64,000 nucleotides of DNA from the IMG/VR virus record IMGVR_UViG_3300027374_000001. The stretch is one strand, 5' to 3'. The notes below the pieces were generated by a model. That model did not search any database. It was given only the letters and a program-made list of their open reading frames with translations, and was not told where the DNA came from. This document shows, piece after piece, positions 42,349 through 46,133 of the stretch. The position numbers were made by a program, and so were the translations under genes. Within the stretch, counting starts at the first letter, position 1; every line of letters begins with the position of its first letter. This DNA is from a virus (lineage: Duplodnaviria > Caudoviricetes).

Positions 42349-42798
42349 ATGGACAATATAACTCTCGATATACTATTGGAATTCTTATACAATAGATTTG
42401 CGGTTACATTCTTGATGTGTTTATTGGGATCACTGATAAGAGAAACCATGACCTCATCAAAGAAAAATAGTGCATTGAACATCCCGAAAATCGTGGCTTC
42501 CACGATATTCTCGACATTTTTAATGTGCGCGGCTGCGGATTATTTAAAAATAAATATTCCATTTAGTATATACGCAGTGGTATGCATATTGTTAGGAATG
42601 TGGGCTTATGTCATTATCAAATTCGCATTAAATGGAAAGTTTATGACTAGTCTATTAAAGATATTCGCTAAGAGTGCAGATCCAATAATTAAGGATGTCG
42701 CGTCAATGGCAGAGAAAGAAAATGCTCGACTTCCAGATGCTATTGACTCAGCCGAAACCACGAAAGATAAAAGTGAAAAAGATCCCGGTAGCACCTAG
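42349..42798 (+). CDS. 3-TM holin-like membrane protein
   Basis: Three hydrophobic helices, charged C-terminus, AAGGAGG RBS. Confidence 0.5.
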   Translation: MDNITLDILLEFLYNRFAVTFLMCLLGSLIRETMTSSKKNSALNIPKIVASTIFSTFLMCAAADYLKINIPFSIYAVVCILLGMWAYVIIKFALNGKFMTSLLKIFAKSADPIIKDVASMAEKENARLPDAIDSAETTKDKSEKDPGST

Positions 42799-42975
42799 TT
42801 GTGCTACCGGAACCTTTTGTTAGAGAACTATCATGCAAAAACAAAATACGAAGTAGGTAAAATACAGAGGGCCGGTCGCTTCGGCCCTCTATAATTCCAC
42901 CCAGGAGGCACCAAAAATGCCATTTAATAGCCACCAGCCAACCTTTTTGCATCCGACCCCGATTAACCAGCAGCT
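42776..42975 (-). ncRNA. Candidate ~200-nt structured RNA (6S-like architecture)
   Basis: AACA-N6-TAA promoter at 42978..42989 and terminator at 42776-42810. Nested stems ATGCAAAAA/TTTTTGCAT and a ~21-bp G-U-rich hairpin. No credible ORF. Confidence 0.55.
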
Positions 42976-42989
42976 ATTATAAATATGTT

Positions 42990-44252
42990 TTAATAATAAG
43001 TGTTCATGGTAGTCATATTAGCATCTGACATCTGCTTTAAAGCATTGTAATCTACAAATAATCCATACATCTTTCTATTATATATAGGCTGCTTAGAAAG
43101 TTCTTCTCTGAGATTATCATATTTATCATACAATTTATAAAGTCTTTCTTTTTCATGCTCTGATAACTCCTCTTCATTATCCAAATAATCCGTTATTATA
43201 ACCATTCTTCCATTAAGCTCACGCATAAGATTTAATGCTTCATATTCCGTTTGAATATTCTTTATTCTTATACGATATTCATATACATCGTCTTCTATAG
43301 ATTTCATTCCAGACTTTTTAATTTGGGTAAACAATGAAGACTTCTTTTTAGAAGATTCAGTTAATGCTGTTCTATAATCTCTAATATTTCTATCATATGA
43401 AGTATTATTATAGTCAACTATAGCTACCATAAGCTTTCTCAGTAATTTAGAACCACAGAGCCTAATAGAATCTTCAATAACATCCGAAATTTCTGTCTTT
43501 TGGTCAAACAGATTTCCCGAATATCTGTATACTGATAAATACCAGTTAATGATAAGTGTAGGACAACATATCTGATCCTTTAAATTGTTTTTAGCTTTTT
43601 TGACACACTCTATTCCACGGTCATAGGCTTCTGTGAGACCGTAATTTCTAATGAAATCATCAGCAAGCACTAAATTTTCGTTACATAATTCAAATGAAGA
43701 TGTTACTTTTCTTACATACTCTGTCATTACAAATTGCATCAGGTATTGATCAAGTTGTATATCATTTTGTCTAAGTAAAACTCCTGACTTTACGGATACA
43801 TAGTCAATAGCAGCAACAAAGTCTTTTACAACTTGCGGATTATTAATTGCATTTATATCATGTATAATCAATGCGGCGAGAACTAACGGAGAGAATTCAT
43901 ACACTTCATCAAATACTTTACTATCTATATCTAATGCATAGTGGTCAAATTTAATTTCTGAACTCTTGATATTAAACATGTCAGGATTCATCATTTGTGA
44001 AGCCATAGCAGATGAGTCTCTAAAATATGGTATAATTTGAACGCCAAAGAAGTCATTATCGGTATTGTCAGATATTTTTACATCTGAACATCTGATATCC
44101 GTAAAAAACTTATTTAATTCATCTATAATAGTTTCTCTAGCTTTGGATCTTATGGCTGCATCTCTATCATATATGCTAGATAAACCCTTTAACAAGTAAC
44201 CAAAGTCATATTTCATTTCTCCATTTTCTATAATAATTCTATCTGTATCCAT
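42990..44252 (-). CDS. Head-associated structural protein
   Basis: Directly downstream of the capsid gene; ALTES putative protease site; promoter variant at ~44274-44287. Confidence 0.55.
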   Translation of the reverse strand: MDTDRIIIENGEMKYDFGYLLKGLSSIYDRDAAIRSKARETIIDELNKFFTDIRCSDVKISDNTDNDFFGVQIIPYFRDSSAMASQMMNPDMFNIKSSEIKFDHYALDIDSKVFDEVYEFSPLVLAALIIHDINAINNPQVVKDFVAAIDYVSVKSGVLLRQNDIQLDQYLMQFVMTEYVRKVTSSFELCNENLVLADDFIRNYGLTEAYDRGIECVKKAKNNLKDQICCPTLIINWYLSVYRYSGNLFDQKTEISDVIEDSIRLCGSKLLRKLMVAIVDYNNTSYDRNIRDYRTALTESSKKKSSLFTQIKKSGMKSIEDDVYEYRIRIKNIQTEYEALNLMRELNGRMVIITDYLDNEEELSEHEKERLYKLYDKYDNLREELSKQPIYNRKMYGLFVDYNALKQMSDANMTTMNTYY

Positions 44253-44357
44253 TGCTAACCTCCTATATGTGTATTATTATAAATGTTTCAGCCTATGATA
44301 AAGAAAAATATAAGGGAGGTACCATAAGGCACCTCCCCAAGCTGCAAAGATCGGTTA

Positions 44358-46133
44358 TTAATCTAATACACGTACCGGGAATGCATTGTAATCTTCTGTG
44401 ATTCCAGACGGATTCAGAATATTAATTCTTCCCTGTACCGGCTGATACTCTACGGGTTTCCAACGCTCGAATGCCGTAATAGCCGGAAGTGCCGGATTAT
44501 TGGAATTTCTGATTTCATTAGCGATGTACATCTGATAATCATATATTCTGTAGGTAATACGATTAGAATTACCAGTCGGAGTCATGATAACAATAAGCTC
44601 ATCGCGGTTACGCATCTTATCAGAACTAATGAAGTTGTAAACTCTCTTCATTGTAGAATTTACAACAGTCTTCTGATAATCAAGCTCCATCGGGCCGATT
44701 GAAGCCGGAGACTGATATGTGTATTCATTCGGAGTAAGCCTGCTGACAATATCCGGATTTCCGAAAATTGTTACTGTCATACTCGGATCATTCAGAGCCT
44801 GAGACAGAATCGTAACATGGCGATCAAGATGCTCCATGAACGTATCCTTACGATGCTGGATGTGATCTCCACTATATCCTACTCTCGGCGCGAAATCGAA
44901 GTTAGTGTAATTAGAGGACCTCGCGTCCAATCTGTCGAAGGAATTATCAAGGAATTCGAGAATCTTATCATCCTTGTAATTCGCCAGCACCGTCTTGATC
45001 AGCTCCATAATCTTCGTAAGCTGATTGATATTGTACAGGGCACTAATATCCTTTACTTCCATCGGAGAGATGGTTGTATTGATCGGAATAGCTTCATCGA
45101 TCTCGATAAGATCTGTTTTCTGTTTCCACTTAACAGAACATGTCGTTTGACGATGATTAGATGTATCCAGCTTAGAATGAATCCTTACTTTCGTAACGTT
45201 TCCATTCAGAGACATAAGGTTGATTCTGGATTTCTCCATAGAACCGGAAAGCATATCCTTAAACTCCGTAACTTTTACGTCTGTACCGTCAAGAGTCTTA
45301 TGTGCAATCTTAATAGGCTGCATAAGAGATCTTTCAAATCCCTGATAACCAGGTGTGAACGGAAGCTGAACCTTGTACCATGTATCATGGGTACCAGCCG
45401 TTGTTGCTCTCTCTCCGTTTCTTTCTACATATCCGGTATCCGGATCCGGAAGAATATCTCCTACTTCATAGTATACATCCTTAACCAGAACTGCAGATAC
45501 ATAAGTACCTCTGGAAAGTTCATCTGCTCCAGCAAGGCCACCAAGGTATGTATGAACAAGCTCTACGTCGTCTTTCAGCGGAAGATCGATTTCAAAATCT
45601 CTTTCCCCGGATGTCTTGTCAATAGCAGCAGTCATCTTGTTCTGCTCTAAGAACATATCAATTTCATTACCTTCTGTGTCTACTAAGATACGGGTCTCCA
45701 TCGTCAACGGAATAGATGGACTAATTGCAACTACTTTCTGAATAGAACCCTTATCAAATACCATATTCATTAAGATATTCTTATGCATCGGGAAAGTCAT
45801 ACCGACTACCGGATTCATCTCAGCAGTACCAACGTTCTCGCGGATAGCCTCAACATCATTTTCATACTGATTTTCCATTGTAATTCTGTGATCTTCAAGT
45901 TGAGCCGCTGTCATTCCAGCCGGGTCGCAAGAGTTCTCTACAAAGAAGTTCCTCATCGTAGCATTAGCTCCGTCGCTTAAGATCATATCACGAGCATCTT
46001 TAAAAACGTCTACATGATTTTCATGACGAATATTTGTCATTGTTTCACAAACAGCTGCAGCATATGGATACATTGAATGAGTTTCGTAGCCCTCAGCCAA
46101 ATGCTTACTTTTTCTTTCACCAGCAATAGCCAT
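44358..46133 (-). CDS. Major capsid protein
   Basis: 591 aa, codon usage suggesting high expression, own promoter (46206..46217) and terminator, putative propeptide ending near AIRE, position near scaffold and protease genes. Confidence 0.75.
   Translation of the reverse strand: MAIAGERKSKHLAEGYETHSMYPYAAAVCETMTNIRHENHVDVFKDARDMILSDGANATMRNFFVENSCDPAGMTAAQLEDHRITMENQYENDVEAIRENVGTAEMNPVVGMTFPMHKNILMNMVFDKGSIQKVVAISPSIPLTMETRILVDTEGNEIDMFLEQNKMTAAIDKTSGERDFEIDLPLKDDVELVHTYLGGLAGADELSRGTYVSAVLVKDVYYEVGDILPDPDTGYVERNGERATTAGTHDTWYKVQLPFTPGYQGFERSLMQPIKIAHKTLDGTDVKVTEFKDMLSGSMEKSRINLMSLNGNVTKVRIHSKLDTSNHRQTTCSVKWKQKTDLIEIDEAIPINTTISPMEVKDISALYNINQLTKIMELIKTVLANYKDDKILEFLDNSFDRLDARSSNYTNFDFAPRVGYSGDHIQHRKDTFMEHLDRHVTILSQALNDPSMTVTIFGNPDIVSRLTPNEYTYQSPASIGPMELDYQKTVVNSTMKRVYNFISSDKMRNRDELIVIMTPTGNSNRITYRIYDYQMYIANEIRNSNNPALPAITAFERWKPVEYQPVQGRINILNPSGITEDYNAFPVRVLD

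Follow-up and report, generated by a model that had tools for sequence, protein, structure and literature searches.

A 64,000-nt stretch of the IMG/VR virus record IMGVR_UViG_3300027374_000001 was analyzed (the window, which refers to this stretch at its full length). It contains a 191-nt non-coding gap, 42799-42989, that separates two convergent genes, and the subject of this study is a putative small RNA (sRNA) encoded on the minus strand of this gap. The parent record comprises 129,475 bp at an estimated 52% completeness, which corresponds to a jumbo phage of ~250 kb, and encodes a beta subunit of a phiKZ/AR9-type RNA polymerase (RNAP; phrog_3015) as well as a family-B DNA polymerase, a chaperonin, a large terminase, and a major head protein. 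The evidence points to a base-pairing antisense sRNA whose accessible stretch has, as judged from sequence comparison, co-evolved with the translation initiation region (TIR) of a phage topoisomerase II gene.

A predicted strand-specific RNA between two convergent genes

The GC content of the gap is 0.40-0.49, compared with 0.25-0.35 in the flanking DNA, in agreement with a previous description of the locus (the sequence-only reading) as a GC-richer non-coding island. The RNA locus is present in a single copy in the genome, and among the 26 intergenic gaps of at least 130 nt it displays the largest strand asymmetry. The minus strand folds with a minimum free energy (MFE) of -90.1 kcal/mol (z -7.4; 0 of 200 dinucleotide shuffles are as stable) versus -56.4 kcal/mol for the plus strand (z -4.0), which bears out the proposal that the structure, with its G-U pairs, is a property of the minus strand only. 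In both the MFE and the centroid folds, the RNA forms a row of separate hairpins and not a rod (Table 1). The long hairpin UGGGUGGAAUUAUAGAGGGCCG/CGGCCCUCUGUAUUUUACCUA (H3) and the small GGCA/UGCC hairpin (H2), both of which had been recognized in the sequence-only reading, are present in the MFE fold, together with a 5′ hairpin starting at the predicted +1 position (H1) that was missing from that reading. In the window, H1 has a folding energy of -19.5 kcal/mol on the RNA strand versus -2.2 kcal/mol on the complement. H1, H3, and the terminator hairpin are probably stability and scaffold elements.

The sequence AACATATTTATAATAG (42974-42989, minus strand) begins one base past the stop codon of the 420-aa gene and contains the AACA-N6-TAA promoter proposed before, a motif that is near-invariant in the homologs; the sequence AACATAWTYRTAAT is nearly invariant across 11 homologous loci. 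In Bacillus phage AR9, the late promoters recognized by the non-virion RNAP have the consensus AACA-(6N)-TA/G, with the last base serving as the start site, and the early promoters recognized by the virion RNAP have the consensus AAATATATATTAT-(6N)-G (PMC5312081). By the AR9 late start-site rule, the RNA would begin at A42978, the very base at which pairing in H1 starts. In the genome, the AACA-N6-TA[AT] pattern precedes co-oriented genes, mostly structural ones, at 23 intergenic sites, and by analogy with the AR9 promoter classes the RNA would be made late in infection. At its 3′ end, the proposed 10-bp terminator stem with a U run is confirmed and enlarged: the core stem CCGGUAGCAC/GUGCUACCGG extends to 18 bp before the U run (42777-42818), the terminator scan matches on both strands, and a homologous terminator is present in all relatives.

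The terminator scan gave no match between the stop codon of the 420-aa gene and the RNA, so the element must also form part of the 3′ untranslated region (UTR) of the read-through 420-aa mRNA. The absence of a terminator at this position is what would be expected of a passive structured 3′ UTR or bidirectional terminator, one that stabilizes the mRNAs of the 420-aa gene and the capsid module and insulates the convergent genes, with the complementarity described below being fortuitous. A UTR, however, has no use for a near-invariant promoter that sits precisely where H1 begins.

Table 1. Predicted features of the RNA locus, its neighboring genes, and the early-like promoter sites of the genome
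Feature	Coordinates	Strand	Remarks
Major capsid gene	44358-46133	-	Followed by the 420-aa ORF
420-aa open reading frame (ORF)	42990-44252	-	Downstream of the major capsid gene
149-aa membrane-type ORF	42349-42798	+	Adjoins the holin gene
Late promoter AACA-TATTTA-T	42979..42989	-	AR9-type AACA-N6-TA; predicted +1 is A at 42978
Predicted sRNA transcript, ~205-207 nt	42772..42978	-	Fold, promoter, terminator, no conserved ORF
H1, 5′ hairpin from +1	42926..42978	-	First 53 nt; 18 bp, 7 G·U pairs, 17-nt G-rich loop
H2, small hairpin (GGCAUU-UUU-GGUGCC), and conserved ACCUCC-type motif	42903..42921	-	CCUCC at 42904-42908; anti-TIR module
H3, long hairpin, ~21 bp	42854..42903	-	"Apical stem" of the sequence-only reading; present in the MFE fold
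U/G-rich single-stranded linker (CUUCGUAUUUUGUUUUUGCAUGAUAGUUCUCUAACA)	42818..42853	-	Unpaired or weakly paired in the MFE fold
Intrinsic terminator	42772..42817 (stem 42778-42817, U tail)	-	Bidirectional; overlaps the last codons of the convergent 149-aa gene
Early-like promoter sites	G000:C1:14170-14186 (L186:2171-2187); also 12320, 18876, 34107, 72944, 87200		Motif match

Conservation of the RNA and its relation to known classes

The 420-aa protein has >230 metagenome homologs, the closest 57 of which form at least 46 clusters at 85% identity, and several of the relatives' contigs derive from human gut metagenome assemblies. The loci of 13 distinct lineages were compared, 11 of which carry full-length RNA homologs. 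In every relative whose protein identity is ~45% or more, the gap measures 190-290 nt and has the same architecture: AACATAWTYRTAAT right after the stop codon, a first hairpin that begins at the predicted +1, a second, small one, an (A)CCUCC in single-stranded form, a near-perfect long hairpin, a pyrimidine-rich linker of 36-106 nt that usually contains UUUUUCAU, and the terminator. The ACCUCC-type motif between H2 and H3 is kept in 11/11 full-length relatives, reading CCUUC or CCAUC in three, and in the same 11/11 the long hairpin starts 0-10 nt past this motif, with unrelated sequences. One further lineage, L178, has a short form in which H1 is followed almost directly by the terminator. The order of capsid gene, 420-aa gene, and RNA is conserved within the clade.

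In relatives whose identity is 30-37%, the stop codon is followed by a plain terminator and nothing more, which indicates that the RNA is a clade-specific addition; in these relatives the element is evidently dispensable for the protein, as the passive UTR explanation would have it. The RNA is also absent from the IMG/VR relatives and from a contig of an Izemoplasmatales-labelled metagenome-assembled genome (L185). An exact-pattern scan of IMG/VR with the H3 core gave no match, the 16-nt promoter pattern was unspecific in IMG/VR (>118 chance matches), and the GenBank phage collection gave no match when searched by DNA and by flanking protein.

Strong covariation within a preserved shape is seen in H1, which is present in 13/13 relatives. 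Its positions 1-5 (AAUAG/CUAUU) are nearly fixed, positions 6-10 each show 4-6 different canonical pair types, and positions 7-9 are paired in 13/13; between the window and a 74% relative, 7 of the 18 H1 pairs differ and 0 are broken. G·U pairs account for 53 of the 182 H1 pairs of the family (29%) and for 7 of the 15-19 pairs in several sequences, and the folding energies across the family range from -11 to -19.5 kcal/mol on the RNA strand versus -0.3 to -6.7 kcal/mol on the complement. The pattern of pairs, together with the G·U bias, fixes the transcribed strand and indicates that selection acts on the RNA structure; covariation among relatives, suggested in the sequence-only reading as a check, is thus found in H1. 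MAFFT with RNAalifold gave no consensus for H1 because the alignment is not structure-aware, and a pair table anchored at +1 was used instead. The G·U-rich helices of H1 form in RNA but hardly in either DNA strand or in an antisense transcript, and this richness may help a polymerase that reads the template strand by keeping its start site free of a cruciform or template hairpin.

No conserved ORF is present on either strand across the homologous loci. The overlapping 70-aa minus-strand ORF (42740-42952), whose translation had been named as a possible cause of the conservation, stops after 3 codons in L002 and was rejected as coding. A plus-strand product would take the form of a 21-aa ORF at ~42921-42986 preceded by a duplicate of the topoisomerase TIR (GGAGG-N8-ATG). 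A perfect Shine-Dalgarno (SD) sequence and ATG do occur in the window, L002, and L154, but the peptide is unconserved (21 aa in the window, another frame and length in L002, 2 codons in L149), the ATG is lacking in L009, L183, L184, L180, and L151, the G·U-rich helices exist on the minus strand only, and the promoter and terminator face the minus strand, which leaves this explanation hardly credible. A type I toxin-antitoxin pair, which calls for a conserved small hydrophobic ORF opposite the RNA, was rejected as well, the opposite-strand ORFs ranging from 2 to >43 aa with unrelated sequences. We regard a conserved, strand-specific sRNA extending from promoter to terminator as real and well supported.

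The sequence-only reading had gone further and likened the RNA to 6S RNA, that is, a rod with a central bubble that would sequester host or phage RNAP, or else a sponge for defence proteins. The length of ~200 nt, the high degree of structure, and the possession by the phage of its own multisubunit RNAPs all fit this notion, and the proposed closing stem AUGCAAAAA/UUUUUGCAU does exist in the window as a 9-bp complementarity of rank 1 that would join the H1 loop to the downstream linker. This complementarity is window-specific, however, and is unsupported in relatives, where it shows no covariation (permutation p = 0.36). In all relatives, as in the window, the MFE fold is a string of hairpins, and the covarying H1 is incompatible with the bubble model. 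A cmscan of the window against all 4227 Rfam families at gathering thresholds gave 0 matches, so the comparison with 6S, SRP, and other families that had been recommended returns none of them. A permissive scan of 42700-43060 (E <= 10) gave nine weak matches, none of them 6S, SRP, tmRNA, pRNA, or a riboswitch; the best, GcvB-like and located at the U/G-rich linker, scores 19.9 bits against a gathering score of 42, which is chance level and not significant. A tRNA/tmRNA search with ARAGORN found none. Relative to 6S RNA (Rfam RF00013 and relatives), the RNA is thus alike in size, high structure, and non-coding nature and unlike it in having neither a covariance-model match nor a rod with closing stem and central bubble. 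With the Rfam result negative, the rod absent, and the closing stem not covarying, the 6S-like reading is rejected on three tested features and appears very improbable. What stands of the original proposal is the independent minus-strand non-coding unit with a phage-type promoter and terminator; the 6S shape does not, and a role as RNAP decoy or defence sponge is unsupported.

The conserved synteny with the capsid gene would also suit an RNA that binds protein or assists assembly in the head module, in the manner of phi29 pRNA. No Rfam pRNA family matches, the loop-loop and loop-junction pairings that such an RNA might use are unsupported, the H1-loop pairings showing no cognate preference, and the RNA is missing from relatives in which these head genes are retained; this explanation is exceedingly unlikely. 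A pseudoknot between the H1 loop and the CCUCC junction was also tried and rejected. It is plausible in 7/11 sequences, among them L184 (GUGGA/UCCAC) and L152 (GGUGG/CCAUC), but cognate combinations are no better than shuffled ones (p = 0.88).

Complementarity to the topoisomerase translation initiation region

Accessible segments of the RNA were scanned against the TIRs of the 144 predicted genes in the available genome. The segment comprising H2 and ACCUCC (5′-GGCAUUUUUGGUGCCUCCU) pairs with 5′-AGGAGCACCAAAAAUGCC at G000:C1:14192-14209 (L186:2193-2210), which lies outside the window, to form a duplex of 18 bp with one bulged C and an energy of -32.8 kcal/mol; the next-best of the 144 TIRs reaches -28.0 kcal/mol. 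The paired stretch runs from the SD sequence through the spacer and AUG to the second base of codon 2 (+5). This site ranks first of all non-self sites when 12,944 windows from the two strands are compared (z -5.8), and it is the longest trans match of the reverse complement of the whole RNA, the control maximum being 12-mers; the 13-mer CACCAAAAATGCC occurs in the genome only at the RNA locus and at this site, and the reversed control pattern is absent. Cofolding of the full 207-nt RNA with the 5′ end of the mRNA yields a ddG of ~ -22 kcal/mol, with H2 opening and H1, H3, and the terminator remaining folded. The linker segment, scanned against all TIRs, gave no outlier.

The gene so identified lies 69 kb from the RNA locus and encodes a 788-aa, GyrB-like large subunit of DNA topoisomerase II (phrog_543, E 6e-96; Pfam domains HATPase_c, DNA_gyraseB, Toprim, and GyrB_C). 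Its promoter, TTTTATATATAAT-N6-G, fits the AR9 early consensus and ends 18-21 nt before the ATG, giving a 5′ UTR of ~21 nt. The pattern [CT]ATAT[AT]ATA-N4-TGA[AT] occurs 7 times in the genome, and 6 of these occurrences, including that of the topoisomerase gene, are intergenic and 18-57 nt upstream of a co-oriented gene. With an AR9-late-type promoter for the RNA and an AR9-early-like promoter for the topoisomerase gene, the sRNA and its predicted target fall into different promoter classes. Immediately 3′ of the topoisomerase gene are 458 nt (G000:C1:16572-17029) without an ORF of at least 45 aa.

The pairing was followed in three lineages: lineage A is the window; lineage B comprises the L002 RNA and the L189 topoisomerase; and lineage C comprises the L149 RNA, from an incomplete contig, and the P0123 topoisomerase. 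L189 is the locus of P0122, the closest non-identical topoisomerase ortholog (85% identity), and it has diverged from the window genome to the same degree as L002 (78.4% and 79.4% nucleotide identity, respectively). The L189 TIR reads GGAGG-UACAUU-AAAAAUGCC and the L002 RNA reads GGCAUUUUU-GGUGUG-CCUCC, and together they form 20 contiguous bp, including 3 G·U pairs, with an energy of -33.6 kcal/mol. Compared with lineage A, the SD and AUG in the TIR of lineage B lie 2 nt further apart, the spacer having grown from 8 to 10 nt, and the RNA carries the same 2-nt expansion; 3/3 differences between the target and the mirror image of the RNA in lineage B run in the direction compatible with G·U pairing. 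The window RNA clearly favors its cognate over the cross pairing (-32.8 vs -26.3 kcal/mol). In lineage C, the RNA reads GACAUUUGGUGUACCUCCUGG, with GACAU replacing GGCAU, which predicts an AGGAGG-UACACCAA-AUG-UC target. P0123 (75% identity) begins with MSKELT, compared with MPKELT in lineages A and B, such that the G-to-A substitution in the RNA is mirrored in the second codon by a change from Pro to Ser (CCU to UCN), seen here at the protein level only. The complementarity ends at +5 in all three lineages.

These observations bear directly on the passive UTR explanation, since neither a conserved single-stranded motif nor a coordinated 2-nt indel 69 kb away would be expected of a stabilizer. 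Moreover, the orthologous topoisomerase site, fixed in advance, is the best non-self match of the L002 segment among 21,668 windows of family loci (z -6.7). We consider a purely passive element unlikely.

The main rival is a broader or different set of anti-SD targets. The RNA would then be a general anti-SD regulator or sponge, in which ACCUCC and the linker pair with many host or phage SD sequences or mimic the 3′ end of 16S rRNA, and the topoisomerase site would be one target among several or a lineage-specific one. Consistent with this notion are the presence of ACCUCC (or CCUUC/CCAUC) at its fixed place between H2 and H3, the lack in distant relatives of a CAU that would cover the topoisomerase start codon, and the lower mean duplex energy of the segment with TIRs than with coding windows (-15.5 vs -12.4). 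The linkers also fit, containing further CU-rich, anti-SD-like motifs as well as a UUUUUCAU whose mirror image resembles SD-AUG-AAA. Five anti-SD bases, however, confer no specificity, whereas the complementarity in lineages A-C amounts to 18-20 bp with a single gene and tracks both the indel and the second codon; in addition, stoichiometric sponging of all SD sequences would require an implausibly large amount of RNA. We hold such a general regulator to be a fairly unlikely, if serious, alternative.

The linker deserves mention on its own account. UUUUUCAU is found in most relatives' linkers (L009:3840-3914, L183:2186-2255, L180, L182, L150, L151, and L184; the window linker is at 42818-42853), and the mirror image of the relatives' linker resembles a ribosome-binding site followed by AUG-AAA-AGR-AAA-ACA (MKRKTT in L009 and L183). 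This region may be a second anti-TIR module, for which no target was found in the available half of this genome.

Several points weigh against the topoisomerase mRNA as the target. The 6-bp hairpin H2 occludes part of the seed; the genome is ~52% complete, and better targets could lie in its other half or in the host; and both phage and host are uncultured. The co-evolution is based on two lineages with DNA and one inferred from a protein N terminus, and the link between L189 and L002, which come from different samples, is indirect, consisting of matching rank and divergence. For the L002 RNA, the duplex preference is slight (cognate -33.6 vs cross -30.7), and full-length cofolding does not separate its cognate from its cross pairing. 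The H1 loop (UCGGAUGCAAAAA; window 42944-42956, minus strand) is perfectly complementary to 13 nt at G000:C1:15280-15292 (plus strand), within the topoisomerase coding sequence (+1075, codons 359-363, KKIFASE); this match, the RNA's second-longest in trans within the genome, is missing from lineage B and was treated as chance. Finally, relatives at 45-50% identity (L009, L151, L183, and others) keep ACCUCC without an adjacent CAU, and their topoisomerase proteins begin with MANK, MAKK, and similar sequences, so that their RNAs cannot cover the topoisomerase start codon. The target may thus differ across the family, being restricted to the SD and spacer of the same gene or lying in another gene.

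With these points considered, we lean toward a late, trans-acting antisense sRNA that would repress the mRNA of the phage topoisomerase II large subunit. In the proposed mechanism, the phage non-virion RNAP would transcribe the ~205-nt sRNA late in infection from its own AACA-N6-TA promoter, and the functional core, H2 and the single-stranded ACCUCC, would base-pair in trans with the topoisomerase mRNA, from its SD through the spacer and AUG into codon 2, of which two bases would be covered. Such pairing would block 30S binding and perhaps trigger cleavage of the duplex; with 30S binding blocked, topoisomerase synthesis would presumably be shut off at the onset of late transcription.

Known regulatory RNAs and other structured regions

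Phage antisense RNAs that occlude a TIR or destabilize an mRNA are exemplified by P22 sar and P1/P7 c4. Phage lambda contributes two further antisense RNAs, OOP and aQ (PMC12197685). Like the RNA described here, all four are small, structured, and terminator-ended, and they base-pair with phage mRNA to time its expression. They belong to temperate phages, are cis-encoded or located in the same operon as their target, and are transcribed by host RNAP, whereas the RNA at this locus is trans-encoded at a distance of 69 kb, resides in a jumbo phage with phiKZ/AR9-type RNAP genes, has an apparent phage-RNAP late promoter, and would target a DNA-replication enzyme. Among Firmicute sRNAs, those of the RsaE/RoxS type present a single-stranded C/U-rich anti-SD motif flanked by hairpins and a terminator. 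The pairing of a C/U-rich motif with the SD is shared; unlike the RsaE/RoxS type, the present RNA has no Rfam match, and its seed extends over the spacer and AUG of one phage gene.

The same regulatory logic is found in phage T4, whose RegA protein competes with ribosomes, later in infection, for the TIRs of mRNAs from early and middle replication genes (PMC3014915). RegA differs in being a protein and in binding ~30 AU-rich operators; the repressor proposed here would be an RNA that forms a single long and specific duplex. In the jumbo phages phiKZ and 201phi2-1, sRNAs have been mapped by ONT-cappable-seq, most of them derived from 5′ UTRs, and no target or function was reported for them (PMC11512511). 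They resemble the present RNA in being short units that run from start site to terminator and whose genomic position is kept among related jumbo phages, and they differ from it in belonging to Pseudomonas phages, in having different promoters, and in showing no similarity of sequence or structure.

The locus offers a concrete and falsifiable sRNA-target pair, with a defined seed, a site in a replication gene of an essential type, and evolutionary coupling between the two, and the RNA family, which lacks an Rfam model, is a candidate for addition to Rfam. If the proposed pairing is correct, it would parallel T4 RegA at the RNA level, and no sRNA and target would have been defined as a pair in the AR9-type phage group before; phage-RNAP late promoters would be able to drive regulatory RNAs, and phages thought to be independent of host RNAP, by analogy with phiKZ and AR9, would still separate early from late expression by post-transcriptional RNA control. 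Mirror-image ribosome-binding sites in phage intergenic regions would then serve as a metagenome signature of such regulators. A wider generalization, that AR9-type dual-RNAP jumbo phages use as a temporal switch a family of late, trans-encoded antisense sRNAs that are made by the phage non-virion RNAP, that silence the translation of early replication genes, and whose seeds co-evolve with ribosome-binding sites, is put forward as a tentative but genuine possibility.

The 420-aa gene upstream of the RNA has transcription signals of its own. The bipartite motif of the RNA promoter recurs here as AACA-N7-TAATAG, which is located ~25 nt upstream of the SD of this gene in 11/11 loci examined, just past the terminator of the capsid gene (GGGGAGGTGCC...GGTACCTCCC), which it follows directly. 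For this terminator and promoter, the loci compared were the window (44272-44338, minus strand), L002, L009, L150-L152, L154, and L180-L184. The GTAACATCTWAAWTAATAG motif 3′ of the capsid gene is almost invariant in relatives with only 45-50% protein identity.

Two other non-coding regions were noted. In L018 (3197-3500) and L019, which are 248-kb phages in IMG/VR and 36% relatives, a different non-coding region of ~270 nt follows the homolog of the 420-aa gene; it forms a long-range stem, GAUAUGGGGGUGA...UCACCCCCAUAUC, has a terminator of its own, and may be a structured RNA unrelated to the one described here. In the parent genome, outside the window, the other highly structured, GC-richer intergenic stretch is at G000:C1:28400-29030 (212 nt, -0.34 kcal/nt); it lies beside a tRNA-like GGUUCGAAUCC motif and is probably a tRNA cluster.

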